Shown here one piece after another: positions 1-17,762 of a stretch of DNA of 64,000 nt (positions within the stretch are counted from its first letter, which is position 1; each line of letters begins with the position of its first letter). The translations under genes were made by a program, and so were the position numbers. Location of the stretch: positions 8,726 to 72,725 of the forward strand of contig JAFZSK010000083.1 of assembly GCA_017620915.1 (NCBI GenBank), read 5' to 3'. Source of the stretch: Clostridia bacterium (lineage in GTDB: Bacteria; Bacillota; Clostridia; UBA1212; UBA1255). The notes under the pieces were generated by a model. The model saw only the letters and a list, made by a program, of their open reading frames with translations, had not been told where the DNA came from and did not search any database.

Positions 1-152
1 AGGTCCTGCACTACTGCGAAGACCTGTACCTGTTCGCGGTCGGAACGCCGATACATCCGGTGCTGCTCATCGCGGCGGCAATGGCGCTCACGGTATTTTT
101 CTCATACGCCTACATGGTATGGAGCAAAGGGAGGCGCGGTATTAAAAAATGA
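1..152 (+). CDS. 3' end of an upstream gene (partial, C-terminal hydrophobic segment); stop TGA overlaps next gene start (ATGA)
   Basis: Frame 3 is open from the window edge to TGA at 150-152. It translates to a hydrophobic membrane-like tail (…VLLIAAAMALTVFFSYAYMVWSKGRRGIKK). The 4-nt ATGA overlap with the next gene indicates translational coupling. Confidence 0.45.
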   Translation, partial: VLHYCEDLYLFAVGTPIHPVLLIAAAMALTVFFSYAYMVWSKGRRGIKK

Positions 153-1513
153 ACTTGACAGATAGATTCCTTGACAGTATTTTGAAACTCGCGGACGCGC
201 CGCTGTCCCCCGGATCGGTGCGCCAGGTCGAACGGTGTATCCTCGACTATATCTGCGTCACCTTCGCGGGCAGAAAAATGCTCGGCGACCGGCTGGCGGC
301 GATCGAGCAGGGCGCGCCGGAGGGCAACTGCGAAGTGCTCGGCACGGATAAAAAGTTATCTGTGTATCCCGCGGCGTTTCTGAACGGCTTCGCGGCGCAT
401 TTCGCGGAACTGGACGACGGCAACCGCACCGGTGCCCCCCACCTCGAAGCAGTTATTATATCGGCAATGCTGGCCGTTGCCCAAAGCACCGAAATATCCT
501 TCGAACGCTTTATAAAGGGAATAATCGTCGGTTACGAAGCCACGACCAGGCTTTCGTCCGCAATGCAGCCCGGACACAAACAAAAGGGTTTTCACGCTAC
601 CGGTACATGCGGCACGATCGGCGTCGCGCTGGCAGCCGGATACGCGCTGGGATATACCCGCACGCAGCTGAAAAGCACGCTTTCCGCGGCGGCAGCGGCT
701 TCGGCGGGTCTGCTGCATATGCTGGACGATGATTCGGAATTAAAGCCGTATAACGTTGCGGGTGCGATAACGCGCGGGCTGGAAGCCGCGTTTTTCGGCA
801 GGTGCGGGCTAACGGGACCGGACGATGTGCTGAGCGGCAAACGCGGTTTTTTGTCGGTGTTTACGGATGAGACCGATCTGTTCAAACTGATGGGTGCCTT
901 TTCGATGCCGGCGATATATTTGCGTTATGTAAAGCCGTATGCGTCGTGCCGGCATTCCCATCCGGCGGTCGAGTGCGCGCTTACGATCTGCGGCGAGCAC
1001 GATATCGACCCGGCGGCAATACAAAAAATCGAAATACAAACGTACAAGCAGGGCATATACGGCCACGATCAGACCGATATAACCAGTGTCAACGCGGCCC
1101 GTATGAGCACGCCGTACAGCGTTGCCGCCGCCACCGTGCTGGGTTCGTGCGGGATCGAAGCGTTCACGAAAAAAACGATCGCGCGGAAAGATATCATTGA
1201 CCTCGTTCAAAAGGTCAGCATCGCGGAAAACGCCCGGATGACCGAAAAATGCCCCGAAGAGCGCGGCGCCGCGGTGACCTTTATCATGCACGACGGCAGT
1301 TCCTACACCGCGGAAGTGGGCAATCCGCTGGGCGAACCCGAACACCCGCTCAGCGACGAAGTGCTGGAGGCAAAATTCCATTCCCTGATGACCTACGCCC
1401 GCGTGTACAAGCGGGATCAGGATAGAATCAATAACGCGGTCCGGGCGCTGGACCGCAACTATGACGACCTAATCAACGGACGCTTTTTTAAGCTGGATCT
1501 AAGAAAACGATGA
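149..1513 (+). CDS. MmgE/PrpD family protein (2-methylcitrate dehydratase / cis-aconitate decarboxylase superfamily)
   Basis: 454-aa ORF with MmgE/PrpD-like N- and C-terminal domains by sequence resemblance. High-GC codon usage matches the neighbours. Confidence 0.8.
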   Translation: MNLTDRFLDSILKLADAPLSPGSVRQVERCILDYICVTFAGRKMLGDRLAAIEQGAPEGNCEVLGTDKKLSVYPAAFLNGFAAHFAELDDGNRTGAPHLEAVIISAMLAVAQSTEISFERFIKGIIVGYEATTRLSSAMQPGHKQKGFHATGTCGTIGVALAAGYALGYTRTQLKSTLSAAAAASAGLLHMLDDDSELKPYNVAGAITRGLEAAFFGRCGLTGPDDVLSGKRGFLSVFTDETDLFKLMGAFSMPAIYLRYVKPYASCRHSHPAVECALTICGEHDIDPAAIQKIEIQTYKQGIYGHDQTDITSVNAARMSTPYSVAAATVLGSCGIEAFTKKTIARKDIIDLVQKVSIAENARMTEKCPEERGAAVTFIMHDGSSYTAEVGNPLGEPEHPLSDEVLEAKFHSLMTYARVYKRDQDRINNAVRALDRNYDDLINGRFFKLDLRKR

Positions 1514-1526
1514 CAGGAGAATTGCT

Positions 1527-2429
1527 ATGAACAGTATGGACAAAACAAGGGAATTCTTACGTTCCATAGGACAACCCGGCGGCGACGCGTACGATCTGCC
1601 CGATTCGCGGAAACGGTTCGCGGACGGCGGACAATACCGGTTTGAGGTCCCCGGCATCCAGGGCCCCAAGGTCATGAAGGCGCTCCTGGAGGCAATTGAC
1701 AGCTACGGCCTGTACCTGCACCGCGTGACGCAGACGCAGGGAATCATGCGGTTGACGGACGACGAGATCGGCAAAATGGTCGACCTGGCCCATAAATACG
1801 AGACCGATCTGATCCTTGCCATCGGACCGCGCGCCACCACCGACACTTCCGCTTCCGTGCACACCGACGAAGGCGTGCGGATGGGCTACCGGTTAAGAGG
1901 ACAGGAGCAGATCGTCCGCGCCATAGAAGAAGTAAAGCGGGCGGCAAGACTCGGCTGCCGCGGCTTCCTGGTATACGACGAAGGCTGCCTTTGGGTGCTC
2001 AACGAAATGCGCAAAGCCGGCGAGATCCCCGCGGATTGTCATTTCAAAGTATCAGCGCACGCGGGTCACGGCAATCCCTGCTCCGCGAAACTGCTCGAGA
2101 TGATCGGCGCGGATTCCATCAATCCGGTGCGCGATATCCAGTTGCAGATGCTGGCGGCAATGCGGCAGGCGGTAGATTGCCCCATCGACATTCATACCGA
2201 AAACCCGGCGTCGACCGGTGGCTTCATCCGCCACTACGAAGTGCCCGAAATGATCCGCGTCGCGGCACCGATCTACCTGAAGACCGGCGGTTCCGTGGCG
2301 CAGACGCACTCCTGGGACAGCACGGAAGACGATGCACGGAAACGCGCAAAACAGTGTGCACTTGTAAAACGCATGATCGACGAATACTATCCCGAAGCGA
2401 TCTGGAGTCCTCGTGGAAGTTTGATTTAA
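1527..2429 (+). CDS. hypothetical enzyme, family not recognised (possibly TIM-barrel-like)
   Basis: 300-aa ORF 14 nt after the PrpD stop, preceded by RBS CAGGAGA. It is co-directional with the PrpD/Ldh_2/CitE-like genes. No diagnostic motif recognised. Confidence 0.55.
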   Translation: MNSMDKTREFLRSIGQPGGDAYDLPDSRKRFADGGQYRFEVPGIQGPKVMKALLEAIDSYGLYLHRVTQTQGIMRLTDDEIGKMVDLAHKYETDLILAIGPRATTDTSASVHTDEGVRMGYRLRGQEQIVRAIEEVKRAARLGCRGFLVYDEGCLWVLNEMRKAGEIPADCHFKVSAHAGHGNPCSAKLLEMIGADSINPVRDIQLQMLAAMRQAVDCPIDIHTENPASTGGFIRHYEVPEMIRVAAPIYLKTGGSVAQTHSWDSTEDDARKRAKQCALVKRMIDEYYPEAIWSPRGSLI

Positions 2430-2445
2430 TTAAGGGGGCCAGGGA

Positions 2446-3483
2446 ATGCAGGTCACTTTAGCAAGCATAAAAAACGTTGCCGATGAAGCGCTTAATAAAA
2501 TGGGAGTGGACAACGAAAGCAGAAAAGTTATCGTTGACACGATCATTTTTGCTAACCAGAGGGGAGTGGCGACCCACGGAATCGGAAGACTTCCGCTATA
2601 TATTAAAAAAATACAGTCGGGTCACCTGAATCCTCAGAACCTGGCGGAAACAGTCCTGGATTCGGCGGGGATAGCGGTGCTGGACGCGCACAACTGCTTT
2701 GGTCAGGTGGCGGCGTACACAGGAATGAAGCTCGCGATCCGGAAGGCGAAAGAATACGGCACCGCCGTAGTCGGTGTAAGGAACAGCAATAATTTCGGTA
2801 CGGCGGGATACTTTGGGGATATGGCGGCAAGGCAGGGCATGGTCGCCATGATCTACGCCAACGCAGCGCCCGCTATTGCTCCCACAGGCGGAACGAAAAC
2901 CATTTTCGGCACCAATCCCATTTGCTATGCGTTTCCCGGCGGAGAAGGAGAAGACCCGATCCTGCTGGACATGGCCACGACGGTGGTCGCACGGGGGAAG
3001 ATCAGATTGGCAGCGAAAAACGGAGAGAAGATCCCTCTGGACTGGGCGATCGGGCCGGACGGCGTACCCACCGACGATCCCGAAGAGGCGCTGAAAGGAT
3101 CGCTGCTTCCCATTGCGGGCTATAAAGGCTACGGTCTATCCATGTTTGTGGATCTGCTTGCCGGATTGCTGACCGGTTCCGCTCACGGAGGAGACGTGAA
3201 AAACCTGAGCAAGCTGGATGAGGATTCCGAAAACGGCCACCTGTTTGTCGTGATCGACGCCGGGCGTTTTTTAGAGCCGGAGCAATTGAAAAATGAAGTC
3301 GCACAGTTCTGCGAAAAAGTGAAACAATGCGGTCCGGCTGGTATGATTTACATGCCCGGTGAAAAAGAATATAATTTCAGGCGGGCACATCAAAACGCCG
3401 TAGAAATCAGTCAGGCGCAGTTTGACGAGATCAACGAAGCAGCCGCCTCTATCGGCGTAAATGCACGCCTTGAATTAGAATAA
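2446..3483 (+). CDS. Ldh_2 family malate/L-lactate/sulfolactate-type dehydrogenase
   Basis: 345 aa. The N-terminal region and the HGIGRLP…GTNPI…ARGKI…GYKG motifs are typical of the type-2 malate/L-lactate dehydrogenase family (ComC/YbiC-like). Confidence 0.8.
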   Translation: MQVTLASIKNVADEALNKMGVDNESRKVIVDTIIFANQRGVATHGIGRLPLYIKKIQSGHLNPQNLAETVLDSAGIAVLDAHNCFGQVAAYTGMKLAIRKAKEYGTAVVGVRNSNNFGTAGYFGDMAARQGMVAMIYANAAPAIAPTGGTKTIFGTNPICYAFPGGEGEDPILLDMATTVVARGKIRLAAKNGEKIPLDWAIGPDGVPTDDPEEALKGSLLPIAGYKGYGLSMFVDLLAGLLTGSAHGGDVKNLSKLDEDSENGHLFVVIDAGRFLEPEQLKNEVAQFCEKVKQCGPAGMIYMPGEKEYNFRRAHQNAVEISQAQFDEINEAAASIGVNARLELE

Positions 3484-3523
3484 AAAACAAGAGGAATACA
3501 ACGTCAAAAAGAAGGAAAGAATC

Positions 3524-4666
3524 ATGCGACACCATTTGTATAATCCGAATTTTAAATTTGTTAAAGATCCGGTGGAGTTCAACAAATACACCGACCGGAA
3601 CGTTCTTCAATATTGCCTCGGCGCCACAATGTATATGCCCGGGCACCGTGATTTTACCGAAGCGATCCTTACGCATAAATATCCCGGATTGACGGCGATG
3701 GTAATGTGCTTTGAAGACGCCTGCAAGCTGGAAGACGTGCCGCGGGCCGAGCAGAACAGCATCCACACGCTGGACGTGCTTTCCGAAAAACTGGAAAACG
3801 GGGAGATCACATATGCGGATCTGCCGCTGCTGATCTTCCGGGTGCGGAATATTGACCAGTTTAAACATTTTTCTTCCATGCTGAAGCCGGAGCATATGAA
3901 AGTGCTCGCGGGCTTCAATTTCCCCAAATTCAACGCGGAAAACGGCGAAGCGTATTTTGCCCACCTGAAAGAGCTAAACGAAAAATTCGGCGAGATCATA
4001 TACGGCATGCCCATAATCGAAGACCGCACGGTCGCGTTTAAAGAGACCCGGATGGCGGAGCTGCTGGGTATCAAGAAGATCCTCGACAACTATAAAGAAC
4101 TGGTGCTGAACGTCCGCGTCGGCGCCACGGACTTTTCGTCCTGCTTCGGCGCGCGGCGTGACGTGGAATACACGATCTATGATATCATGACCGTGAGCGA
4201 TATCCTGCTGGATATTTTGAATATATTCTCGCGCGACGGCGATTACGTCGTCTCCGGACCGGTCTGGGAATACTTCAAAGTGAAGAAAGAAATGCGGTTC
4301 TCCGATCTTCCGAAGATCAATATTCAGGAGTCGCTGATGAAGCGCGAGCCGCTGGTGAGCCCCGAAGTGGACGGCCTGATGCGCGAACTGATCCTGGACA
4401 AGGCCAACGGCTTCATCGGCAAAACGATCATCCACCCCAGCCATATCAATTTCGTCAACGGCATCCTCGCGGTGACGCGGGAGGAATATGAGGACGCGGT
4501 GCAGGTGCTGGCAACGTCCGGCGGCGTGATCAAGAGCGGCAACGCCAACAAGATGAACGAGATCGGTCCGCACCGTCTGTGGGCGGAAAAGCTGGTCGCT
4601 CGGGCGGAAGCGTACGGCGTCATTGAGAGCAAACAAAGCTATCTGGAACTCTTCGGTACCAACTGA
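3524..4666 (+). CDS. HpcH/HpaI aldolase / citrate lyase beta (CitE)-like family protein
   Basis: 380 aa. YMPG…IEDR…VGATDFSSCFG…IHPSHI resembles the CitE/malyl-CoA lyase fold motifs. RBS GGAAAG lies upstream. Confidence 0.65.
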   Translation: MRHHLYNPNFKFVKDPVEFNKYTDRNVLQYCLGATMYMPGHRDFTEAILTHKYPGLTAMVMCFEDACKLEDVPRAEQNSIHTLDVLSEKLENGEITYADLPLLIFRVRNIDQFKHFSSMLKPEHMKVLAGFNFPKFNAENGEAYFAHLKELNEKFGEIIYGMPIIEDRTVAFKETRMAELLGIKKILDNYKELVLNVRVGATDFSSCFGARRDVEYTIYDIMTVSDILLDILNIFSRDGDYVVSGPVWEYFKVKKEMRFSDLPKINIQESLMKREPLVSPEVDGLMRELILDKANGFIGKTIIHPSHINFVNGILAVTREEYEDAVQVLATSGGVIKSGNANKMNEIGPHRLWAEKLVARAEAYGVIESKQSYLELFGTN

Positions 4667-4723
4667 GGAGGCAGGGCACGATGGAACAAATGGTATGCAT
4701 TTAAGAAACAGGTGATAATAATT

Positions 4724-5869
4724 ATGCAATTAGAATTCACTCGCGACCCGGGCAAAATGATCGAATTCGCGAAAGCAATAGTTGCAGAGAAAAGTAAATA
4801 CTATACTCCGCAAACGCTTGAGAGCATAAAAGACCAGGTCAGAATGCGCGCGGGCAAGTGCGGCGAGCAGGAAATCGATGATAAAATGTATATAACCATT
4901 TATTATTACTGGTTTTACGGCTGTGCCGTGGACGAATATTTTTATTATCGATTTTACGAAAAAACGTATGATGAAATCAAATCGTACATTACAAAAAGAG
5001 AGAAGGTCCATTATACAAACTGGCTGAACCGGATCGAAGACGCGCATTTTCTTCAGAACAAATTTGAAACGTATCAATTGTTCAAAGAAGATTTTAAGCG
5101 CGAAATGATCTACTGCGACAGCGAGGAAAACTATGGCGAGTTTTTAAGTTTTGTCAGACGGCACCCGGTTTTTGTGGTAAAAGCGCTGCAGCTGGGCGGA
5201 GGACAAGGCGTTTTTAAAGATAGTGTTATCGGGTTGACAGAGGACGAAATACTGAACAAATATCGTGAATTTCTTGCCCAGAACGACATACTTAACAGTC
5301 AACACAATTCATGGGGCGGAAAAAGCGCATTCGTAGTGGAAGAACTGATAGACGCCGGAGAAGAAATCGCAAAACTGCACCCGCAATCAGTCAATGTTGT
5401 CCGCATGCCGACCTTTAATTTGAACGGAACTATAATGGTTTTTCAACCGTGGATAAAGATCGGCCGCGGAGACAGTTTTATTGACAACGGGCATGCAGAC
5501 GGCCTGATGGCGGGAATAGATCCGGAAACAGGCATAATTGATACTCCCGGCTATTCAGAGTTTCCGGAGTCTTTTGAATACCATCCCGACACAGGTATCA
5601 AAATACCCGGATTTGCCATTCCGAACTGGAATGAGCTTGTTGAAACAGTGAAGAGACTGTCTGCCGTTTTGCCTACCATAAAATACATTTCGTGGGATAT
5701 GGCCTGGACAAAAAAAGGCTGGGCGATCATGGAAGGCAATTTTAGGGGTGCTTTTATGTGGCAATTCTTCAGACAAAAAGGCATGAAAAAAGAAATTGAA
5801 GAACTTATCGACTGGAAGCTTCCGGATGGATTCTGGTGGCAGATCAATATTTCCAGAGAGGACAATTAA
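4724..5869 (+). CDS. ATP-grasp domain protein (TupA-like / sugar-transfer-associated ATP-grasp type), paralog 1
   Basis: Shares a conserved block with the next ORF (YYWFYGC…EYF, …FVVKALQLGGGQGV, HPWIKIGRG, GWAIMEGNFRGAFMWQFF). RBS AGGTGA is 8 nt before ATG 4724; the track start at 4712 lacks an RBS. Confidence 0.6.
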   Translation: MQLEFTRDPGKMIEFAKAIVAEKSKYYTPQTLESIKDQVRMRAGKCGEQEIDDKMYITIYYYWFYGCAVDEYFYYRFYEKTYDEIKSYITKREKVHYTNWLNRIEDAHFLQNKFETYQLFKEDFKREMIYCDSEENYGEFLSFVRRHPVFVVKALQLGGGQGVFKDSVIGLTEDEILNKYREFLAQNDILNSQHNSWGGKSAFVVEELIDAGEEIAKLHPQSVNVVRMPTFNLNGTIMVFQPWIKIGRGDSFIDNGHADGLMAGIDPETGIIDTPGYSEFPESFEYHPDTGIKIPGFAIPNWNELVETVKRLSAVLPTIKYISWDMAWTKKGWAIMEGNFRGAFMWQFFRQKGMKKEIEELIDWKLPDGFWWQINISREDN

Positions 5870-5883
5870 AGGAGGCTATAATA

Positions 5884-7065
5884 ATGTTTAAGGACTGGCT
5901 GAAAATCACTGAAGATCCGGCAGAAATCAAAGAGATGGCGAAACGAATCGTATCAGAGGCAACGATATACACCGGAGGTATTATTAAAAAATTCTATACG
6001 CCCTTGATGATAAGCAAACTGGATGCCTCGATAATGGAGTACGCCCCGGCAACGACTGAGCAGGAAAAAGAAGAACTGCGGCTGCGGTTTATTTACGACT
6101 ACTGGGTTTATGGGTGCACGGTGGAGGAGGAATTCTATCTGCATCTGAAAGATAAAAACGATGCCGAAAAAAGAGAGTATCTGATCGGTCAGATGCGCAG
6201 TATTTATGCACGGCATTTAAATCAGAACGCAGGTCCGGAATGGGTCGAGAAAATGCAGGATAAATACCGGCTGTATCAGTTGCTTCGTCCGTATTATAAA
6301 CGTGATGTGATCGAGATCCGGAGCATGGACGATTTTGATATTTTTGCGGATTTCGTCAGAAAGCATAAAGAATTTGTAGTAAAGCCCTCGAACTTCTGCT
6401 TTGGTATCGGCGTTCACAAAGTATCTATGGATGATTACGGAAATGACTGTAAAAACGCGATGCAGTCAATTCTCAGCGAAGGCGACGCCATTCATGAGAA
6501 GCATCCTACTCGAATGTCGAAAATGGTACTTGAAGAGATCATTCCCCAGGACGAAGCACTCTCTGTACTCCATCCGCATTCTGTAAATGCCATTCGTGCT
6601 ACTGCCGTCAGAGGAAAAGACGGGAGAATTCACATCTATCATCCGTGGATCAAGGTCGGACTGGGCGGTGCTTTTGTGGCTTCGGCGGCGCTAACGGGCT
6701 TTGACGCAGAGATCGATCCCGATACCGGTATCGTAATTACAGACGGGTATCAGGAAAACGGCAGTGTATACAAAGTGCATCCGGATTCCGGCATCCAGAT
6801 CAAGGGTTTCCAAATCCCCAAGTGGGATGAACTGATTCAGTTCGTAAACGAAATAATGGACGCACTGCCCGAATACGGATATGTGGGTTGGGATCTGGTC
6901 CTTACCCCCGATGGCTGGTGCGTTATGGAAGGCAATCATACCGGCCAATTCGTATTTCAGATGATTAACGGAAGAGGCTATAAGAAAGATTTTGAAGATC
7001 TGATAGGCTGGAAATACGATAAGGATTTCTGGTGGCAGGACAACGGGAAATTTATGCACAATTGA
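5884..7065 (+). CDS. ATP-grasp domain protein, paralog 2
   Basis: Paralogous to 4724-5869 (YDYWVYGC…, FVVKPSNFCFGIGV, HPWIKVGLGG, GWCVMEGNHTGQFVFQ). Strong RBS AAGGAGG is 9 nt before ATG 5884. Confidence 0.6.
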   Translation: MFKDWLKITEDPAEIKEMAKRIVSEATIYTGGIIKKFYTPLMISKLDASIMEYAPATTEQEKEELRLRFIYDYWVYGCTVEEEFYLHLKDKNDAEKREYLIGQMRSIYARHLNQNAGPEWVEKMQDKYRLYQLLRPYYKRDVIEIRSMDDFDIFADFVRKHKEFVVKPSNFCFGIGVHKVSMDDYGNDCKNAMQSILSEGDAIHEKHPTRMSKMVLEEIIPQDEALSVLHPHSVNAIRATAVRGKDGRIHIYHPWIKVGLGGAFVASAALTGFDAEIDPDTGIVITDGYQENGSVYKVHPDSGIQIKGFQIPKWDELIQFVNEIMDALPEYGYVGWDLVLTPDGWCVMEGNHTGQFVFQMINGRGYKKDFEDLIGWKYDKDFWWQDNGKFMHN

Positions 7066-7132
7066 TTCACCGCGGGCGGCGATGGGCGGCAATAAAATGC
7101 GAAGACGATGAATAAAAAGGAAAAACGGTAGT

Positions 7133-8551
7133 ATGGAAAACAGATTCAAAAGAGTAATGTCCGCTACGGATATACTGGTTGTCGCGTTCGGCGCCATGAT
7201 CGGGTGGGGCTGGGTCGTATCATCTGGACGCTGGATACAGAATGCCGGCGTGATCGGAACGGTCATCGGCTTTATCATCGGCGGTGTCATGATCTATTTC
7301 GTGGGTATGACATATGCCGAATTGACGCCGGCAATGCCAAAAGTCGGCGGGGAGCACCTGTTCAGCTACAAAGCGTTCGGCCCCACGGGTTCATTTGTCT
7401 GCACCTGGGCGCTGATCCTGAGCTATATCGGCGTAGTCTGCTTCGAGGCGGTGTCGCTTCCGGCTATAATCCAGTACATTTTTCCGTCGTTTGCACAGAT
7501 TAAACTGTATACGATCGCCGGCTCGGATGTGTATCTGACCGGGGTCATTCTTGCTTCACTGAGTACGATCGGGATCATTATTATCAACGTACTGGGGATC
7601 AAGGCGGCGGCGATCTTTCAGACTGTATTGACAGTTACGATCGCGGTGGTAGGCGTTATTCTGGTAGTGGCGTCCGTGATCAACGGCGACCCTGCGAATC
7701 TGGACGGCCAGGTCATTATCGGCAGTGGATTCGGGTCAATTAAAAATATCCTTTCGGTGGCGGTCGTGGCACCGTTTTTCCTGTTCGGATTTGACGTCAT
7801 TCCGCAAGTGGCGGAAGAAATTAACATCCCGCTGAAGAAAATTGCCCGGGTCCTGCTGCTTTCTATTATATGCGCGGTCGTATTTTACGGCCTGGTGGTT
7901 TTTGCTGTCGGTTACGCGCTCAACAAGAACGATATTGCAGATGCGCTCGGCGGTTCGGGGCTGGTCACGGCGACCGCGATGGAAAAAGTGTTCAACAGTT
8001 CAATAATGGCTAAAGTGCTGATAATTGGAGGACTGTGCGGCGTTGTCACCAGCTGGAACTCTTTCCTGATCGGCGGCAGCCGGGCAATATTCTCAATGGC
8101 GGAATCCAAGATGATACCGGGCAATTTTTCCAAACTGCTTCCGAAAAAAAAGACGCCGGTCAACGCGCTGCTCCTCATCGGTGTGCTTTCCCTGGCGGCC
8201 CCGTTTTTCGGCCGTACTATGCTGGTCTGGATCTCAGACGCCGCCAGTTTCGCGTGCTGCCTGGCGTACTGCATGGTGTCGTTGTCCTTCCTGATCCTGC
8301 GCAGGAAAGAGCCGGATCTGCGCCGGCCGTATAAAGTAAAGCACTATCGATTTGTCGGCATAATGGCAACAGTATTGTCCGGTCTGATGGTAGTGTTATA
8401 TTTGATCCCGGGCTCCGGATGCACGCTGACTATGCAGGAATGGATCATCGTCGGCGGCTGGACCGTGCTCGGCGTGATTTTTTACATAGCGTGCAAAAAG
8501 CATTACGGGGACAAGTTCGGGAAGATCGAACTGCCGGCTGAGCGGGACTGA
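7133..8551 (+). CDS. APC superfamily amino-acid permease
   Basis: 472 aa with about 12 predicted TM helices. The N-terminal region and overall hydrophobicity pattern match amino acid/polyamine/organocation transporters. Confidence 0.8.
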   Translation: MENRFKRVMSATDILVVAFGAMIGWGWVVSSGRWIQNAGVIGTVIGFIIGGVMIYFVGMTYAELTPAMPKVGGEHLFSYKAFGPTGSFVCTWALILSYIGVVCFEAVSLPAIIQYIFPSFAQIKLYTIAGSDVYLTGVILASLSTIGIIIINVLGIKAAAIFQTVLTVTIAVVGVILVVASVINGDPANLDGQVIIGSGFGSIKNILSVAVVAPFFLFGFDVIPQVAEEINIPLKKIARVLLLSIICAVVFYGLVVFAVGYALNKNDIADALGGSGLVTATAMEKVFNSSIMAKVLIIGGLCGVVTSWNSFLIGGSRAIFSMAESKMIPGNFSKLLPKKKTPVNALLLIGVLSLAAPFFGRTMLVWISDAASFACCLAYCMVSLSFLILRRKEPDLRRPYKVKHYRFVGIMATVLSGLMVVLYLIPGSGCTLTMQEWIIVGGWTVLGVIFYIACKKHYGDKFGKIELPAERD

Positions 8552-8592: not shown

Positions 8593-9615
8593 ATGGAACA
8601 GAAATGTGTTGTCAGCGTGATCATTCCGGTATATAACGTTGCGCCGTACCTGGCCGAGGCGCTGGACAGCGTTATCAACCAGAGCTATGAGGAACTGGAA
8701 ATAATCGTAATTGACGACGGTTCGACCGACGGTTCCTGCGAGATATGCGACAAATATGCCGAACAGGACAATCGCATCCGCCTGATCCATCAGGTGAATC
8801 AGGGGGTTGCCGCAGCGCGCAACACAGCGTTGGACAATGTTACGGGAGACGTTATTGCCTTTCTGGATTCGGATGATGCATACGACCCGGACTATGTCAA
8901 GATCATGCTGGCGGCAATGAATGACAGCGGCACCGATGTGGTGATATGCAAGTATTCGAAGCATTTTACTACAGAGAAGATGAGCTGTGACAATATAGAG
9001 GAAATAGGCCAGCTGATAAACGGAGGCACCTATGACCGGATCTATGCCATGCGCGCGCTGGCCTCGAACAAAATTCACGCATATTTATGGAATAAATTGT
9101 TTCGTGCCAGACTCTGGGCAGAAATACGGTTCCCGATCGGAATGGTATACGAGGATATTGACGTTATTTTCCGCGTATTCAATTTGTGCGACAAGATACT
9201 GGTGCTGGATCAGCCCCTGTACATGTATCGGAAACGCCACGGCAGCATCACCGAGCAAAAATCAACCGACAGCATAAGCGACTGGCTTGCGATCTGTATA
9301 CGCATCGAGTCTTTTGTCAATGAAAACATACCCGATGTCTATACTTCGGACGACCTGAAAAATATGAAACAGCTCAGGCTGTATAATATGATAAGCTATT
9401 TTTGCAAACATGTATTGCAGAAAACCGCGGACTCGAAAGCGTTTATGAAGAGTCTGAGAAAGCAGATCATCGAACTCAAAAAAGAGGTCGGTCTCGGTAA
9501 ATGTTCCGTTCACATGCGGATCAGCTACCGGATCATCCAACTGTGCCCCGGCTTGCTTAAAGTGCTTTCGCCGGTGTACATGGCTTTCAAAAAGACAAAG
9601 TACTTTGGCAGTTGA
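8593..9615 (+). CDS. family 2 glycosyltransferase
   Basis: VSVIIPVYN…IIVIDDGSTDGS…DSDD motifs are classic GT-A/GT2. The start is ambiguous between TTG 8584 and ATG 8593. Confidence 0.8.
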   Translation: MEQKCVVSVIIPVYNVAPYLAEALDSVINQSYEELEIIVIDDGSTDGSCEICDKYAEQDNRIRLIHQVNQGVAAARNTALDNVTGDVIAFLDSDDAYDPDYVKIMLAAMNDSGTDVVICKYSKHFTTEKMSCDNIEEIGQLINGGTYDRIYAMRALASNKIHAYLWNKLFRARLWAEIRFPIGMVYEDIDVIFRVFNLCDKILVLDQPLYMYRKRHGSITEQKSTDSISDWLAICIRIESFVNENIPDVYTSDDLKNMKQLRLYNMISYFCKHVLQKTADSKAFMKSLRKQIIELKKEVGLGKCSVHMRISYRIIQLCPGLLKVLSPVYMAFKKTKYFGS

Positions 9616-9724
9616 AGAGCGGTATGAACATGAACCGGGACATCCGGATCGTTATCGCCACCAGCGTGTTTCCGCCGGATTACTGCACCGGACCGGAAGC
9701 TCCGTTCGCCGGTACGGACGCTCT

Positions 9725-11641
9725 TTATTCTAATTCAAACGCGCCCGTGTACAGCTGGTAGTAGGTGCCGTGCTGGGCGATCAGCTGGTCGTGGCTGCCG
9801 CGCTCGATGATGCGGCCGTGGTCGAGGACCATGATCACGTCGGAGTTCATGACCGTGGAGAGGCGGTGGGCGATCACAAAGACCGTGCGGCCCTCCATCA
9901 GTTTGTCCATACCCCGCTGCACGATGCTTTCGGTGCGGGTGTCGATCGACGACGTGGCCTCGTCCAGGATCATGACCGGCGGGTCGGCAACGGCGGCGCG
10001 CGCTATTGCCAGCAGCTGGCGCTGGCCCTGGGAGAGGTTGGAGCCGCTGCCGGACAGCTGCGTCTGGTAGCCGTCGGGCAGGCGCGTGATGAAGCTGTCG
10101 GCGCCGGACAGTTTGGCGGCGGCAATGCACTCCTCGTCGGTGGCATCCAGGCGGCCGTAGCGGATGTTGTCCATGACCGTGCCGGTGAACAGGCAGGTCT
10201 CCTGGAGCACCAGGCCCAGCGAGCGGCGCAGGTCGGATTTTTTGATTTTGTTGATATTAATGCCGTCGTAGCGGATCTTGCCGTCGGCAATATCGTAGAA
10301 CCGGTTCAGCAGGTTGGTGATCGTGGTCTTGCCCGCGCCGGTAGCGCCTACAAAGGCAACTTTCTGACCGGGCTCAGCGTACAGCGTGATGTCGTGGAGC
10401 ACCGGTTTGTCCTCATCGTACCCGAAGTCAACATTGAACATGCGCACATCGCCCCGCAGCGGTGTATATGTGAGCGTGCCGTCGCCGTGGGGGTGTTTCC
10501 AGGCCCATTGACCGGTCTTGGCGTCGGATTCGGTGACGTTGCCCTCCGCGTCGATGACAGCGTTCACCAGAGTCACATAGCCGTTGTCCGCCTCGGGCTG
10601 CTCGTCGGTGAGCGCGAATACCCGCTGCGCGCCGGCCGCGGCCATCGCCACGAAGTTGATCTGCTGGGAGACCTGGTTGAGGTTGCCCGTGAACTGCTTG
10701 GTCATGTTCAGGAACGGAATAATGATGCTGATGCCCAGCGCCAGGCCCGAAATGCTGAGGTTCGGGACTTTGTTGATCATCAGGATACCGCCTACGATGG
10801 CCACCAGCACGTACAGGATGTTGCCCAGGTTCAGTATGATCGGGCCCAGCATGTTGGCGAACGTATGCGCGCGGTAGCTGTCTTCGTACAGTGCCTGGTT
10901 GACCGCGTCGAAATCGCGGATGCTCTGGTCTTCGTGGTTGAAGACTTTGACCACCTTCTGGCCGTTCATGATCTCCTGGATGTAGCCCTCGGTCTTGCCC
11001 ATGGACTTTTGCTGGCGCACGAAATATTTCGACGAATTGCCGCCCACGGTCCGGGATACCCACAGCATCACCGCCACGCCCAGCAGCACCAGCAGCATCA
11101 GCCACACGCTGTAGTACGCCATTATAAACAGCACGGTCAACACTATCACGCTTGACTGCAGCACGATGGGCAGCGTCTCCGCCACCACCTGCCGTATGGC
11201 GTCAATATCGTTCGTATAATAACTCATTATGTCGCCGTAGCTGTTGCGGTCGAAGTAACGGATGGGCAGGTACTGCATGTTGTCGAACATGCGGCGCCGC
11301 AGCCGGTACAAGATGCCCTGCGTGATATACGCGGACAACTGCCGGTACACCAGTATGCAAATCACGCTTACAGTGTACAACACGATCAGCAGCGTTACCT
11401 GCGGTATTATCACGCTGCGCGCGGCGGCCCAGTCGCGGGTCTCGTAGTATTTGCCGATGGTCTCGATGACGCGCTGCAGGAACAGCGGCGGTATGGAACT
11501 GACGATGGCCGAGAAAATAATAAATATCGTGGTCAGCGTCGAAAGTCCGGGGTAGTATTTGAACAGCAGCTTGATGATGCGGCCCAGGAGACGGAAATCG
11601 ATGCGTCGGGACTTTTTGTCCGAAGATTCGTTTTTACGCAT
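9725..11641 (-). CDS. ABC transporter permease/ATP-binding protein (type I exporter half-transporter)
   Basis: 638 aa with an N-terminal 6-TM domain and a C-terminal NBD carrying Walker A GATGAGKTT, signature LSQGQRQ and Walker B ILDEATSSID. Confidence 0.9.
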   Translation of the reverse strand: MRKNESSDKKSRRIDFRLLGRIIKLLFKYYPGLSTLTTIFIIFSAIVSSIPPLFLQRVIETIGKYYETRDWAAARSVIIPQVTLLIVLYTVSVICILVYRQLSAYITQGILYRLRRRMFDNMQYLPIRYFDRNSYGDIMSYYTNDIDAIRQVVAETLPIVLQSSVIVLTVLFIMAYYSVWLMLLVLLGVAVMLWVSRTVGGNSSKYFVRQQKSMGKTEGYIQEIMNGQKVVKVFNHEDQSIRDFDAVNQALYEDSYRAHTFANMLGPIILNLGNILYVLVAIVGGILMINKVPNLSISGLALGISIIIPFLNMTKQFTGNLNQVSQQINFVAMAAAGAQRVFALTDEQPEADNGYVTLVNAVIDAEGNVTESDAKTGQWAWKHPHGDGTLTYTPLRGDVRMFNVDFGYDEDKPVLHDITLYAEPGQKVAFVGATGAGKTTITNLLNRFYDIADGKIRYDGININKIKKSDLRRSLGLVLQETCLFTGTVMDNIRYGRLDATDEECIAAAKLSGADSFITRLPDGYQTQLSGSGSNLSQGQRQLLAIARAAVADPPVMILDEATSSIDTRTESIVQRGMDKLMEGRTVFVIAHRLSTVMNSDVIMVLDHGRIIERGSHDQLIAQHGTYYQLYTGAFELE

Positions 11642-13412
11642 TGTCCGTCACCTCCTCTCCGGCCGCGTTGTCCGCGGCGTCGCTGTTGCGGGTCTGCTGC
11701 TCGTACGTCTCGCGGTACGCGGGACTGGATGCCATCAGTTCGGCGTGGGTGCCGGCGGCGATTATCCGCCCGTGGTCCAGTATCAAGATCTGGTCCGCGT
11801 CCATCACGGAGGCCACACGCTGCGCGATTATCAGCTTCGTCGTAGACGGGATGTACCGGCGGAAACCGGCGCGGATCAGCGCGTCGGTGCGGGTGTCAAC
11901 GGCGCTGGTAGAGTCGTCCAGGATCAGTATCTTGGGTTTTTTCAGCAGCGCGCGGGCAATGCACAGCCGCTGCCGCTGGCCGCCGGACACGTTGGTGCCG
12001 CCCTGGTCGATCTGCGTGTCGTACCCGTCGGGGAAGGACAATATGAAATCCTCCGCCTGCGCCAGCCGGCACGCTTCGGCGAGCTCTTCGTCGGTAGCGT
12101 CCGGATCGCCCCAGCGCAGGTTTTCTTTAATTGTGCCCGAGAACAGGAGGTTCTTCTGGAGCACCATTGCCACCCCGTCGCGCAGCACGGCGAGGTCGTA
12201 GTCGCGCACGTCGATGCCGCCGACTTTGACGCTGCCCTCCGTCACGTCGTACAATCGCGGAATGAGCTGCACCAGCGACGTTTTACCCGCGCCGGTGACG
12301 CCCAGGATGCCCACGGTGCTGCCGGACGGAATATCGAGGTCAATATCGCTGAGCGTGTCGTTGACCGCCTTCTCGGAGTACTTGAAGCGCACGTTTTCGA
12401 AGCGGATCGAACCGTCGGGAATAGTATTGACCGGCTCGGCGGGATTGGTGAGCGCAGAGTCCTCCCGGAGCACTTCGTCGATGCGGCGCGCGGATTCGGC
12501 GGAGATCGTCAACGTCACGTAAATCATCGAGATCATCATCAGTGAGATCAGGATCTGGAAGCCGTACGTGAGCATCGCGGACAGCTGGCCCACGTCGATG
12601 TAGTGGGTGGTGATGACCAGCTTCGAGCCGAAGGTCAGCACGAACACCATGTTGAAATACAGGCACATCTGCATCAGCGGCCCCAGCAGCGCCACGATGC
12701 GCTCGGCCTTGGTGAAGTCGATGCGGATGTCGTCCGATGCTTTGTCGAATTTTTCCTGCTCGTATTTTTCGCGGGCGAAGCCTTTCACCACGCGCATCGC
12801 CATCACGTTTTCCTCCACCGACTCGTTCAGGCGGTCGTATTTGCGGAACACGCTGCGGAACGCGGGCATTGCCTTCCGCGAGACCATGATCAGGCCGAAT
12901 ACCAGCACGGGCACAACCACCACGAACATCATTGCCAGCGCGCCCGCCATGGTGTATGCCATGGCGATGGCAAACACGAACATCAGCGGACTGCGGATGG
13001 CAATGCGGATCAGCATCATGTACGCCATCTGCACGTTGGCCACGTCGGTGGTCAGGCGCGTCACCAGCGAGGATGAGGAGAAGCGGTCAATATTGGTAAA
13101 CGAATACGTCTGCACGCGCCGGAACAGGTCGCCGCGCAGGTTTTTGGCGAAGCCGGCGGAGGCTTTGGCCGCGGTGAAACCCGCGAGCCCGCCGCAGGAC
13201 AGGGACAATACCGCCAGCACCACGAGGATCAGCCCGTTCTTGCCGATCACGTCCAGTCCGCAGCCGTTCTTTATATCGTTGGTAAGCTGCGCCACGATGA
13301 ACGGGATCAGGCATTCGATCACCACTTCGCCCACCATGAACAGCATAGTCAATATCGACGGTTTTTTATATTCGCGCACTGACTTGCCCAGGCGCTTCAG
13401 CATTTGTATCAT
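11634..13412 (-). CDS. ABC transporter permease/ATP-binding protein (heterodimer partner)
   Basis: 592 aa with TMD plus NBD (GVTGAGKTS, VSGGQRQRLCIA, ILDDSTSAVD). It overlaps the downstream ABC gene by 8 nt, so the two are likely co-translated as a heterodimer. Confidence 0.9.
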   Translation of the reverse strand: MIQMLKRLGKSVREYKKPSILTMLFMVGEVVIECLIPFIVAQLTNDIKNGCGLDVIGKNGLILVVLAVLSLSCGGLAGFTAAKASAGFAKNLRGDLFRRVQTYSFTNIDRFSSSSLVTRLTTDVANVQMAYMMLIRIAIRSPLMFVFAIAMAYTMAGALAMMFVVVVPVLVFGLIMVSRKAMPAFRSVFRKYDRLNESVEENVMAMRVVKGFAREKYEQEKFDKASDDIRIDFTKAERIVALLGPLMQMCLYFNMVFVLTFGSKLVITTHYIDVGQLSAMLTYGFQILISLMMISMIYVTLTISAESARRIDEVLREDSALTNPAEPVNTIPDGSIRFENVRFKYSEKAVNDTLSDIDLDIPSGSTVGILGVTGAGKTSLVQLIPRLYDVTEGSVKVGGIDVRDYDLAVLRDGVAMVLQKNLLFSGTIKENLRWGDPDATDEELAEACRLAQAEDFILSFPDGYDTQIDQGGTNVSGGQRQRLCIARALLKKPKILILDDSTSAVDTRTDALIRAGFRRYIPSTTKLIIAQRVASVMDADQILILDHGRIIAAGTHAELMASSPAYRETYEQQTRNSDAADNAAGEEVTDNA

Positions 13413-15631: not shown

Positions 15632-17353
15632 ATGGACGGCAAACTGAGCAAACTGGACCTGATGCGCATCAAGAAAAAGCGCGAGCTGATCCAAAAAAAG
15701 GACCCCGATAAAGACCGAATTCTTGAAACAACGCAGAACGCGACGCTGCTGGACTACGTGCAGTGGGTAGGCGACATTGGCTTTGAGAAGCTGCCTTTCC
15801 GGGAAGCGGACGCGCTGGTGCTGTGCGTGGTGTCGTATTTCGAGCTCCTGCAATTGTTCGCGGAAGGGCAGAAACGCGCGCGGCTCCGGGATTGTGTCCC
15901 GCTGATCGACGCGGGCCGGGCCCGGCTGATGATCACCGGCGGCGACATGGGCAACACCGAGATCTTTCGCGCGGCCGCGGCCTCCAAACGGTTCGGAGAG
16001 CTGGAGATCACGGATTACGTGGACAAATTGTCCGTCGATCCGCCGCTGCAGTTCGCCGCGATGTGCTTCCATTTCCGGGACGAGTTTTCGTTTATTGCCT
16101 ACCGCGGTACCGACAGTTCCCTCGCGGGCTGGCGGGAGAATTTCATGATATCGTTCACGCGGACAACGGCCCAGAACCTCGCCTCCGAATACGCCTCGCA
16201 GCTGGTGGAACCCGGCCATGTCTGGTATATTGCCGGCCATTCAAAGGGAGGCAATCTCGCACTGATCGCCGCGACGCTTTTGCCCCCGGATCAGATGGAC
16301 TTTGTGAAACGCGTGTTCGTGCTGGACGGTCCCGGCCTGTGCCCCGAAGTGTTCGACGAGCAGATGGTGCATAAGATCGACGATAAGATCACCCGCGTCG
16401 TGCCCGAATTCGACGTGATCGGCAAGCTGTTCGAACCTAAAGTCACCGACACTCGCATCGTCAAAAGCTACCGCGACGGCATCGAGCAGCACTCGCTGGC
16501 GTCGTGGATGGTGAGCCACGGCGGCCTCGCGGAGGTCAAAACCTTCGCCCCCGGCAGCCGCTGGATCAATGACCTGATGGACGAGTGGATCGCCGGCATC
16601 CCGCTGGAGGAGCGCGCGGTGTTCGTAGACGAACTGTTCGACGCTATGGAAGAAGCGGGCATTCAGGATCTCCAGGAGATCTCGCCGGAATACTTCGGCA
16701 ACCTCCTGATCCGCATCGGTTCCAAGAGCGACACCACCAAGAAAGTGCTCAAAAGCCTGCCGCGCAAACTGTTGCTGGACGATACCGAAAAAGAGCCGCT
16801 GAAAACGAAACTGCCGCGCATATTCCGCAATTCGCTGCTGATCACCGCGCTGGTGATGATCGCGCTGGGTGTGGGCGTGCTGTTTGTCTCCGATAAAATA
16901 CTCGAGATCGTGTCGATAGCGCTGGTTGCCATCGTCGCGGCGGTGGAGATATTCGTGATCGTCCGCCGGCTGATAAAATCAAAAGGCCGTATGGACGGGC
17001 TGCGGGAGCGGATATTTATCACGCTGGGCCTGCTGGCGCTGATCCCGGTGGTGCTGATCAAAGAAAAGGCAATGTTCATCTTCGGCAGCGTCATCTTCGG
17101 TGTACTGTTCCTGGTGCTGGGGTACGTTGCCGGCGAGCGCGCGGTCAAGGACAAGCGCATTTTCGTGCGGGTGCTGCACATCGTGGAGTGCGTGCTGTCA
17201 ATTGCCACCGGCGTCATTTTCCTGATCATCCCTTCCAAATGGGTGCATACGCTGGCAATAGTTCTGGGCATCGTGCTGCTGACGCTGGCCGCGGCGCGTA
17301 TCGGCTACCTGATCTGGGCGGCGATCAAAAAGAAGAAGGAAGCAGACTTATAA
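15632..17353 (+). CDS. DUF2974/Mbeg1-like alpha/beta-hydrolase (lipase-like GHSKGG nucleophile elbow) with C-terminal multi-TM region
   Basis: YIAGHSKGGNLALIAA serine-hydrolase motif. The C-terminal ~170 aa are strongly hydrophobic (4-5 TM helices). It starts 1 nt after the HAD gene, so the two are likely an operon. Confidence 0.6.
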   Translation: MDGKLSKLDLMRIKKKRELIQKKDPDKDRILETTQNATLLDYVQWVGDIGFEKLPFREADALVLCVVSYFELLQLFAEGQKRARLRDCVPLIDAGRARLMITGGDMGNTEIFRAAAASKRFGELEITDYVDKLSVDPPLQFAAMCFHFRDEFSFIAYRGTDSSLAGWRENFMISFTRTTAQNLASEYASQLVEPGHVWYIAGHSKGGNLALIAATLLPPDQMDFVKRVFVLDGPGLCPEVFDEQMVHKIDDKITRVVPEFDVIGKLFEPKVTDTRIVKSYRDGIEQHSLASWMVSHGGLAEVKTFAPGSRWINDLMDEWIAGIPLEERAVFVDELFDAMEEAGIQDLQEISPEYFGNLLIRIGSKSDTTKKVLKSLPRKLLLDDTEKEPLKTKLPRIFRNSLLITALVMIALGVGVLFVSDKILEIVSIALVAIVAAVEIFVIVRRLIKSKGRMDGLRERIFITLGLLALIPVVLIKEKAMFIFGSVIFGVLFLVLGYVAGERAVKDKRIFVRVLHIVECVLSIATGVIFLIIPSKWVHTLAIVLGIVLLTLAAARIGYLIWAAIKKKKEADL

Positions 17354-17388
17354 ACATTGCTCATTTTTATAGCAAATTAGCAAAAACG

Positions 17389-17419
17389 TATTGCAACATG
17401 ACATACAATATGCTATAAT
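17389..17419 (+). promoter_or_regulatory. sigma-70-like promoter for the toxin-antitoxin operon (TTGCAA-19-TATAAT)
   Basis: TTGCAA at 17389-94 and TATAAT at 17414-19, upstream of RBS AGGAGG at 17431-36. The spacer is somewhat long. Confidence 0.4.
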
Positions 17420-17444
17420 TAAGCGCCGAAAGGAGGTGCTTATT

Positions 17445-17762
17445 GTGGCAATTAAAAGTTCTAATGTGATTGCAAGAGTTGAGCCGGAAATCAAAGAAGA
17501 GGCAGAAGCCATCCTCGCGAAACTGGGTATTTCTGCATCTAATGGGATTAATATGTTCTATAGACAGATCATTTTATGGAAAGGTCTTCCTTTCCGGCCG
17601 GCGATCCCGGTCAGCAGACCGGTTGCTCTTGAGGAGATGACTCGAGAAGAGTTTGATGAAAAAATGACACGCGGTATTGCTCAGGCTAAAGCCGGCGAAG
17701 GAGTTCCTGCGGATGAATTCTTTGCGGCATTAAAGCAGGAAATCGATCAAACACATGTCTGA
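17445..17762 (+). CDS. type II antitoxin, RelB/DinJ family
   Basis: VAIKSSNVIARVEPEIKEEAEAILAKLGISASNGINMFYRQI resembles DinJ/RelB. GTG start lies 8 nt after AGGAGG. The gene overlaps the toxin gene by 8 nt. Confidence 0.8.
   Translation: MAIKSSNVIARVEPEIKEEAEAILAKLGISASNGINMFYRQIILWKGLPFRPAIPVSRPVALEEMTREEFDEKMTRGIAQAKAGEGVPADEFFAALKQEIDQTHV

Follow-up and report, generated by a model that had tools for sequence, protein, structure and literature searches.

The closest described systems to the genes considered here are those in which ATP-grasp ligases act on surface glycans. TupA is the ATP-grasp protein of the Bacillus halodurans teichuronopeptide, and the C-terminal domain of Cj1438 amidates glucuronate in the HS:2 capsule of Campylobacter jejuni. 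The glucuronamide of the C. jejuni capsule has been noted in the literature (PMC11800379). A gene unit resembling these was found in a stretch of 64,000 nucleotides (64 kb; hereafter the window) from a gut or rumen Clostridia bacterium (assembly GCA_017620915.1, contig JAFZSK010000083.1, positions 8,726–72,725). It comprises seven genes at positions 149–8551 of the window, encoding a MmgE/PrpD-family protein, a protein here called X, an Ldh_2 dehydrogenase, a C-C bond lyase, two ATPgrasp_ST ligases and an APC permease, and it probably serves to make a small acidic side-group, to fix this to an amino sugar and to extend it with imported amino acids. What the unit has in common with TupA and Cj1438 is the presence of ATP-grasp ligases in a glycan locus, with the predicted formation of an amide between a glycan carboxylate and an amine or amino acid, ATPgrasp_ST being a sibling Pfam family. 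It differs in that its ligases have no TupA match and no solved or characterised relative, and in that they appear to be linked to an importer and a dedicated pathway for an organic acid, not to uronic acid alone.

The organic-acid genes of the unit, together with further genes of the conserved cassette to which they belong, recall the LeuA-LeuCD-LeuB, PrpC-PrpD-Acn-PrpB and FrbC-FrbA-FrbB (FR-900098) routes, in which a Claisen synthase, a dehydratase/hydratase and a dehydrogenase act on 2-hydroxy-polycarboxylates. The pairing of PrpD with aconitase is mirrored by the PrpD-family protein of the cassette and a separate Fe-S hydrolyase. In contrast to these routes, however, the synthase of the cassette is of the CitE/CLYBL type, its hydrolyase is a two-subunit enzyme of the class-I fumarase/tartrate dehydratase type, its dehydrogenase is of the Ldh_2 or D-2-hydroxyacid type and not of the isocitrate-dehydrogenase type, and there is an extra, obligatory protein, X.

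As an earlier note on this sequence had described, the seven genes are tightly spaced on the + strand and form one co-directional unit of organic-acid enzymes, predicted amide-forming ATP-grasp ligases and an importer; an eighth gene, for a family-2 glycosyltransferase (GT2), closes the unit at position 9615. The intergenic gaps measure 13–67 nt, the starts are preceded by purine-rich motifs resembling ribosome-binding sites, and at 149–152 the stop of the preceding Acyl_transf_3 gene overlaps the start of the PrpD-like gene in an ATGA, also as first noted. The features of the unit are as follows (aa, amino acids; ORF, open reading frame).

1–152 (+): 3' end of an Acyl_transf_3 membrane acyltransferase gene, 356 aa in full (7556–8626 of L001, the window's own locus)
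149–1513 (+): MmgE/PrpD-family protein, 454 aa (Pfam MmgE_PrpD_N and MmgE_PrpD_C)
1527–2429 (+): X, a 300-aa predicted TIM-barrel protein, the hallmark and most conserved gene of the cassette
2446–3483 (+): Ldh_2-family NAD(P)-dependent 2-hydroxyacid dehydrogenase, 345 aa (Pfam PF02615)
3524–4666 (+): PF15617 C-C_Bond_Lyase, 380 aa, CitE/malyl-CoA lyase/CLYBL-like (Pfam, 370 bits)
4724–5869 (+): ATPgrasp_ST ligase 1, 381 aa, predicted amidoligase (PF14397; public gene call)
5884–7065 (+): ATPgrasp_ST ligase 2, 393 aa (PF14397; public gene call)
7133–8551 (+): APC-family amino-acid/amine permease, 472 aa (AA_permease_2)
8593–9615 (+): GT2, last gene of the unit (Glycos_transf_2, 147 bits; ORF from 8584)
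9701–9720 (+): terminator-like hairpin with a T-rich tail, after the GT2 stop (consensus match only)

The ORFs of the window agree with the genes publicly annotated on the source contig. The longest ORFs of the two ATP-grasp genes span 4712–5869 and 5836–7065, and the public calls begin at the ATG codons at 4724 and 5884, so that the ligase genes lie 14 nt apart and do not overlap. The hairpin at 9701–9720, past GT2, is the sole intergenic terminator-like site, and convergent ABC-transporter genes lie beyond it. These are two adjoining ABC_membrane plus ABC_tran exporter genes (638 and 592 aa; 9725–13412, − strand), which converge on the end of the glycan locus.

The window opens inside this locus. 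Over the 8.5 kb upstream, the source contig carries, in order, genes for DegT, a GT4 glycosyltransferase, a 468-aa membrane protein, MurJ/Wzx, FumC, FumN, Bac_transf, a LAL ATP-grasp protein and Acyl_transf_3. The components of a Wzx/Wzy-type locus are all found on this contig (Bac_transf, MurJ/Wzx, GT4, GT2, DegT, Acyl_transf_3 and a candidate polymerase), the putative polymerase being the 468-aa membrane protein, which has no family hit. FumC and FumN, ~4 kb upstream of the seven genes and outside the window, make up the two-subunit Fe-S hydrolyase of class-I fumarase/tartrate dehydratase type. The seven genes are most likely the distal part of a Wzx/Wzy-type surface-polysaccharide locus that runs from DegT to GT2 over at least ~18 kb. 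An identical X sequence is encoded on a 110-kb ENA scaffold and in GCA_016648615.1, a 'Clostridia bacterium' metagenome-assembled genome (MAG).

It had been proposed from the window that the unit makes an organic-acid–amino-acid conjugate, or else is a catabolic route for one. The window cuts off the upstream glycan genes; when these are taken into account, the idea of a conjugate is kept, but the conjugate is most likely a glycan substituent and not a free metabolite, and a catabolic route is judged unlikely. A location of the ATP-grasp paralogs in capsule loci with no link to the organic-acid enzymes had been put forward as grounds for abandoning the proposal. They do indeed lie in such loci, but together with these enzymes, and the link holds.

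The cassette recurs widely. When one genome was scanned for each species, relatives of X turned up in at least 532 of these species-representative genomes. The 80 of these 532 with the highest identity to X are mostly from rumen and gut Clostridia, with Erysipelotrichaceae and MAGs of Kiritimatiellae and Victivallales also present. Taken together with L001 and seven other loci, they gave 88 loci that were compared by tblastn of reference proteins, and in these the core of the cassette consists of X (88), the PF15617 lyase (81), FumC/FumN (79) and the PrpD-like protein (74). The cassette of type A, seen in about 66 loci (64–66), has the order PrpD–AKR–TPP enzyme–X–lyase–FumC–FumN, where AKR is an aldo-keto reductase and the TPP enzyme is thiamine pyrophosphate-dependent. 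That of type B, seen in 16 loci, is without the AKR and the TPP enzyme; as a rule, a D-2-hydroxyacid dehydrogenase gene precedes a PrpD-like gene of another subtype, and a LAL ATP-grasp gene lies inside the cassette. The window represents a rarer form of type B common to L082, L097, L098 and L099, in all of which Ldh_2 holds the same position; it replaces the D-2-hydroxyacid dehydrogenase, or the decarboxylase and reductase pair, of the other cassette variants. In L082, Ldh_2 is accompanied by a D-2-hydroxyacid dehydrogenase. The type-A cassette, otherwise compact, is broken in Sarcina sp. DSM 11001 (L014, 8258–9868) by a 536-aa AAA_35/AAA-ATPase-like gene between the phosphonopyruvate decarboxylase (Ppd) homolog, which is the TPP enzyme, and X.

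Exactly the same seven genes are present together on two further contigs, L097 and L098, where the order is DegT–Bac_transf–LAL–Acyl_transf_3–ATP-grasp–PrpD–X–Ldh_2–lyase–FumC–FumN–ATPgrasp_ST–ATPgrasp_ST–APC. Identity to the window proteins is 53–57% for PrpD, 89% for X, 73% for Ldh_2, 89–92% for the lyase, 43% and 64–66% for the two ATPgrasp_ST ligases and 82% for the APC permease. The neighbourhood comparison that the earlier note had suggested as a check therefore comes out in favour of the unit, the set being kept at 43–92% protein identity, and synteny in independent contigs means that the arrangement is not due to chance. Where flanks are annotated they consist of glycan genes throughout (flippases, Wzy/polymerases, glycosyltransferases, DegT, Bac_transf, UDP-glucose dehydrogenase and CpsB/LytR/Wzz/CpsD), to which a NeuC-like epimerase and a CMP-sugar synthetase are added in Sarcina. 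The gene for FumN (Fumerase) in L097 (11665–12521) is split in the gene calls into ORFs of 143 and 142 aa, by a frameshift, as a pseudogene or through an assembly error, in a copy that is otherwise intact. A nucleotidyltransferase gene of family PF14907 (NTP_transf_5) opens both L097 (1–1002) and L098 (1–1065), with weaker relatives in L053 and L021; members of this family flank phosphoenolpyruvate (PEP) mutase in one phosphonate gene-cluster family (PMC8942020). Glycan decoration by ATP-grasp amidoligases is a known kind of system, but no description of the cassette and its acid pathway, of a PF14397/PF15617 system, of X or of the ATPgrasp_ST and permease extension was found in the literature searched.

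Both ATP-grasp proteins match ATPgrasp_ST (PF14397) with 140 and 127.4 bits against a cut-off of 31.4, are sited in a polysaccharide locus and are 37% identical to each other, which agrees with their description as paralogs. Their initial label as TupA-type has to be given up, as Pfam returned no TupA match at E<=0.01 for either protein; for ligase 2, no solved homolog was found at E<=1. Orthologs of ligase 2 are 64–68% identical in L053, L097 and L098, and an ortholog of ligase 1 is 43% identical and in the same position in L097 and L098. The permease matches AA_permease_2 with 134 bits, and the substrate-level models tried all remain below their equivalog cut-offs (2A0306 subfamily, 160 bits against 557; BcaP, 138; ethanolamine permease, 136). 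Orthologs of it adjoin ATPgrasp_ST genes in L018 (72% identity) and in L097 and L098 (82%), and it would act as the importer of an amine or amino-acid donor.

The distribution of these genes among the cassette types is uneven. Among loci of at least 15 kb, ATPgrasp_ST genes are found in 7 of 14 of type B as against 1 of 46 of type A (Fisher p = 6e-5), and permeases occur in 4 of 16 type-B and 0 of 66 type-A loci (p = 1e-3). This skew to type B suggests that the additional ligases go with retention of the C1 carboxylate. A LAL/CPSase-type ATP-grasp gene within 4 kb of the cassette is present in 13 of 14 type-B loci and in at least 24 of 44 type-A loci, the latter figure being an undercount, since L014 holds a third, divergent ATP-grasp gene that was missed by tblastn.

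This association bears on whether the seven genes form one system at all. They might instead be two unrelated units, the organic-acid genes (149–4666) and the ATPgrasp_ST pair with the permease (4724–8551), acting at different positions of the glycan with no shared substrate. The ATPgrasp_ST genes do stand apart in composition, with a GC content of 0.43–0.46 and a GC content at third codon positions (GC3) of 0.49–0.52 (0.49 in ligase 1), compared with a GC3 of 0.68–0.75 for most other genes of the locus and intermediate values of ~0.60 for Ldh_2 and GT2. Half of the type-B loci are without ATPgrasp_ST genes, and the UDP-glucose dehydrogenase encoded in some loci could give uronic acids as an alternative substrate for amidation. 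A division into two units would not, however, lead one to expect ATPgrasp_ST genes and permeases to be enriched beside type B and nearly absent from type A, nor the same gene order to be kept in L097 and L098 although ligase 1 is only 43% identical there, and we regard it as unlikely.

Turning to the enzymes of the organic-acid part, the first assignments of the PrpD-family and Ldh_2 genes, like that of the permease, are upheld by Pfam matches above cut-off. The MmgE/PrpD protein has both domains of its family (PF03972, 162.9 bits; PF19305, 130 bits; cut-off 32.1). Its identification as PrpD proper, the 2-methylcitrate dehydratase, was rejected, with scores of 30–37 bits for TIGR02330, NF006943 and NF042438 against cut-offs of 458–950. 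The nearest solved relatives are IRG1 of B. subtilis (7bra, 123 bits, the best PDB hit), iminodisuccinate epimerase and cis-aconitate decarboxylase. Ldh_2 matches PF02615 over profile positions 3–332 of 333 (373.8 bits against 38.8). Its best NCBIfam match, the L-sulfolactate dehydrogenase ComC (NF040650), was rejected as an identity at 302.4 bits against a cut-off of 500, and its best PDB matches are the Methanocaldococcus jannaschii sulfolactate dehydrogenase 2x06 (231 bits) and the archaeal malate dehydrogenase 1v9n (226 bits), a marginal difference.

The lyase matches PF15617 (C-C_Bond_Lyase), a family of the CitE/HpcH clan, over its full length and has the CitE/malyl-CoA lyase fold type. 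The description CitE-like is therefore right as to clan, but the CitE and RipC equivalogs are not reached (25 and 24 bits against 443 and 375), with only residues 281–332 matched. The structure of the lyase was predicted from a shallower alignment, and the model has three low-confidence segments. By family it would be a Claisen synthase/lyase acting on an acyl-CoA and a 2-oxoacid (or glyoxylate). In L082 (11989–12972) an HMGL-like protein stands in for the lyase in what looks like a non-orthologous replacement, and this offers a further likeness to the LeuA/FrbC family; its best matches are 4-hydroxy-2-oxovalerate aldolase and the homocitrate, citramalate and isopropylmalate synthases, which carry out the same type of C-C chemistry as the lyase. 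A PF15617 lyase and an ATP-grasp protein are also encoded in one operon near terZABCD-type genes on a Leclercia plasmid (L102, NZ_CP152490.1, 33772–38784), where the order next to the ter genes is ATP-grasp–PRTase–hypothetical–StiP–lyase. That operon differs from the cassette in its lyase, which is only ~30% identical, in having PRTase and StiP, and in being without glycan genes, X, a PrpD-like gene and fumarase. The PF15617 lyase family as a whole is found in 2521 PLSDB plasmids at <60% identity.

Protein X has no match above cut-off in Pfam or NCBIfam. Peptidase_U32 (PF01136) reaches 11.4 bits against a cut-off of 22.4, and a weak match to it was obtained for 25 of 31 diverse members of the X family. 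To judge from these matches, X is a divergent TIM barrel of the U32 superfamily, with a similarity at superfamily level only. The described proteins of the superfamily (RlhA, TrhP, UbiU/UbiV and the Mk0906 structure) differ from X, which scores below the cut-off and has no conserved cysteine among the invariant or near-invariant columns of its family. Hydroxylases of the UbiU/V type carry an Fe-S cluster, and a cluster of this type is excluded for X by the lack of a conserved cysteine. Its invariant or near-invariant residues are S27, D33, E40, R145, D151, K174, S176, R213, R235 and K252, mainly Arg, Lys, Asp and Glu, and the Arg/Lys-rich predicted site fits a polyanionic substrate. The suggestion in the earlier note that this protein might be ComA was not confirmed. 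Neither a ComA nor a xylose-isomerase-type identity found a match in Pfam or NCBIfam, and the PDB sequence matches lie at E>=0.04.

The conservation of X is exceptional. A search detects 5576 homologs of it, the top 120 of which are each 84–93% identical, and clustering at 50% gives 951 representatives of the family. Orthologs from L004, L014, L032, L052, L061 and L085 were compared by codon position. Across hosts X is 86–91% identical in protein sequence, with third codon positions only 33–59% identical and a GC3 of the X gene between 0.45 and 0.95. Since the third codon positions are saturated, recent horizontal transfer is ruled out as the cause of this conservation, and the codon comparison points to purifying selection of an extreme degree, far exceeding that on the cassette genes around it. 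Median identities of the neighbours to the window proteins are 78% for FumN, 59% for the lyase and 36% for PrpD, in loci that were chosen by identity to X.

Distant homologs of X (X'), 30–54% identical, occur in varied small-acid contexts. The arrangements seen were GntR–X'–TctCBA–PrpD'–DHDPS; ABC importer–X'–two amidohydrolases–creatininase–SDR–AKR; X'–ArgD-like–ProA–ThiM-like kinase–HDIG–BacD-like ligase–TauD; hydantoinase A/B–X'; X'–AsnB–transporter–HpcH-like–TauD; and an operon on an Enterobacter plasmid with a phosphotransferase, an oxidoreductase and an aminotransferase. PrpD-like proteins, C-C lyases/aldolases and enzymes acting on 2-oxoacids are the recurrent company of X. The actinomycete locus L093, which has an X homolog with HD and TauD proteins, was considered as a phosphonate cluster and rejected, NCBIfam showing ProA, ArgD-like, ThiM-like and BacD-like enzymes instead.

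Some of these contexts would suit a soluble organic-acid–amino-acid conjugate (opine-, siderophore- or osmolyte-like) that is made or broken down independently of the glycan genes. Distant X and PrpD pairs stand in catabolic-looking operons with GntR, the tricarboxylate transporter TctCBA and a DHDPS-type aldolase, other distant homologs adjoin ABC importers and amidohydrolases, and an importer sits in the unit itself. In the clade of the window, however, the cassette lies in glycan loci wherever the flanks are annotated, and the unit opens by a stop/start overlap with a glycan acyltransferase gene and closes with a glycosyltransferase gene. It contains no regulator, exporter or catabolic partner, and ATPgrasp_ST is by definition a sugar-transfer-associated family. 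A free metabolite or catabolic route is accordingly rather improbable here.

Under the preferred reading, in which the acid decorates a surface glycan, the scheme that we infer from gene families, locus context, synteny, cassette variants and statistical association would have the following substrates and order of reactions. An alkylmalate-type route from central metabolites would build a small anionic hydroxy-acid. The CLYBL/malyl-CoA-lyase-like enzyme would first condense an acyl-CoA with a 2-oxoacid or glyoxylate, and the PrpD-like protein and the Fe-S hydrolyase, with X acting somewhere among them, may then rework the adduct to an intermediate of the 2-oxo-dicarboxylate type. Ldh_2 would reduce this to a 2-hydroxy acid, a step that in other variants may fall to the D-2-hydroxyacid dehydrogenase or be exchanged for decarboxylation and reduction to an omega-hydroxy acid. 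The adjoining LAL-type ATP-grasp protein would join one carboxylate to an amino sugar made by DegT and handled by Bac_transf, two proteins whose genes constantly accompany the cassette, as an N-acylation. Finally, the APC permease would supply an amino acid or amine, with which the two ATPgrasp_ST ligases would amidate or lengthen the carboxylate that is left. That this is not a textbook pathway, as had been remarked at the outset, we agree. The scheme draws on the interchangeable end steps of the cassette, all of which target a 2-oxoacid (the Ppd homolog with the AKR in type A, the D-2-hydroxyacid dehydrogenase in type B, and Ldh_2); with the end step always on a 2-oxoacid, the core would be expected to make a 2-oxoacid that carries a further anionic group.

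A number of points weigh against this scheme. X has no functional analogue, and for this reason the route is a scheme and not a pathway. Decarboxylases and epimerases (IRG1, iminodisuccinate epimerase) are nearer relatives of the PrpD-like protein than dehydratases are. Type A shows no dehydrogenase that would plainly suit an alkylmalate-style oxidation, so that the common intermediate may have another origin. The foreign codon composition of the ATPgrasp_ST genes suggests that they were a later addition, inserted into the locus from a lower-GC donor. The choice of the best 80 genomes by identity to X biases the conservation figures. Lastly, the type-A decarboxylase scores as a true phosphonopyruvate decarboxylase, which hints at phosphonate chemistry outside the model.

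To our knowledge, PEP mutase (PepM) is so far the only broadly known biological entry point at which a C-P bond is formed. Enzymes of the classes found at the branch points after PEP mutase (Ppd, VlpB, FrbC and the Paenibacillus larvae cluster) are gathered around X, namely a Ppd equivalog, a PGDH-like reductase, a malate/sulfolactate-like Ldh_2, a fumarase, an acetyl-CoA condensing enzyme and ATP-grasp ligases. For P. larvae, a cluster of Ppm, malate dehydrogenase, fumarase and ATP-grasp protein has been predicted to lead to phosphonolactate and on to phosphonoacrylate (Li and Horsman, 2022; PMC8942020). It is conceivable, then, that the decoration is of a phosphonate type, or of an isosteric sulfonate type, and arises without PEP mutase, with X, alone or with partners, supplying phosphonopyruvate or another 3-substituted pyruvate. 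The onward steps would be decarboxylation and reduction in type A, reduction to phosphonolactate in type B and by Ldh_2, a fumarase-type dehydration and a Claisen condensation with acetyl-CoA. The TPP enzyme of type A scores 408.8 bits in the Ppd equivalog model TIGR03297, above its cut-off of 312.5. In L023 it shares 42% identity with the Ppd linked to PepM in that locus, and it lies directly upstream of X, with a gap of 1 nt in L006. The type-B dehydrogenase is PGDH-like, as VlpB is (PMC8942020), and the Ldh_2 of the window is closest to sulfolactate dehydrogenase, sulfopyruvate being isosteric with phosphonopyruvate.

These coupling-type enzymes are present without the PEP mutase that a canonical phosphonate cluster has. 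No PEP mutase was found by tblastn in the 64 kb of the window, nor in L001 or 97 of 99 loci that total 1.59 Mb, using a PepM query that was validated by its matches in L023 and L083, of which that in L023 was confirmed by Pfam. L023 (16040–20489) and L083 (~17147–17989) are type-A loci with a separate canonical set a few kb from the cassette; this set consists of a 681-aa nucleotidyltransferase–PEP mutase fusion, an Fe-ADH and a second Ppd (449 bits), and the cassette keeps its own Ppd homolog. The absence of the mutase speaks for a route independent of it, although a PEP mutase could also lie elsewhere in these genomes, beyond the loci searched. X and the lyase, moreover, show no profile similarity to PEP mutase, and such an identity was rejected for both (PF13714; hhalign probability 0.2% for X and 0.8% for the lyase), the lyase being clearly a CoA-ester lyase. 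2-Hydroxyethylphosphonate would offer no carboxylate to the adjoining ATP-grasp ligase, a phosphonate-activating cytidylyltransferase was not seen in most loci, and the distant X homologs stand in contexts without phosphonate hallmarks (TctABC with PrpD and DHDPS; ProA with ArgD-like and BacD-like enzymes; amidohydrolases). No C-P compound is known from these organisms, and no PepM-independent C-P route was found in the literature searched. Decoration of this type thus appears quite unlikely, and the proposal that X is the entry enzyme of a new route to phosphonopyruvate, or to an isosteric 3-substituted pyruvate, very unlikely. If it were true, the surface glycans of hundreds of gut and rumen species would receive an acidic group resembling a phosphonate, with no involvement of PEP mutase.

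Elsewhere in the window, the sole Rfam family found was the bacterial small signal recognition particle RNA (RF00169; 18136–18234, + strand; 74.2 bits against a gathering score of 40), and no tRNA genes were found in its 64 kb.

In the gut and rumen, phage receptors, immune recognition and competition for niches are shaped by the non-sugar substituents that capsules and cell-wall polysaccharides carry, and the biosynthesis of such substituents is known for a few pathogens only. The hosts of the cassette span Lachnospiraceae, Oscillospiraceae, Ruminococcus, Christensenellales and Erysipelotrichaceae as well as the MAGs of Kiritimatiellae and Victivallales, with no characterised member among them, and the cassette pairs an X family conserved at ~90% with a bona fide-scoring Ppd, usually without a PEP mutase nearby. 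Sporofaciens musculi WCA-9-b2 and, with type A, Lachnospiraceae NE2001 are among the carriers, and several carriers are in culture, such as Hungatella effluvii DSM 24995, Acetatifactor muris DSM 23669, Sarcina sp. DSM 11001 (type A) and Lachnospiraceae FE2018 (type B). The product, and what X does, can therefore be tested directly, and the outcome would add a pathway of glycan decoration and possibly new enzymology.

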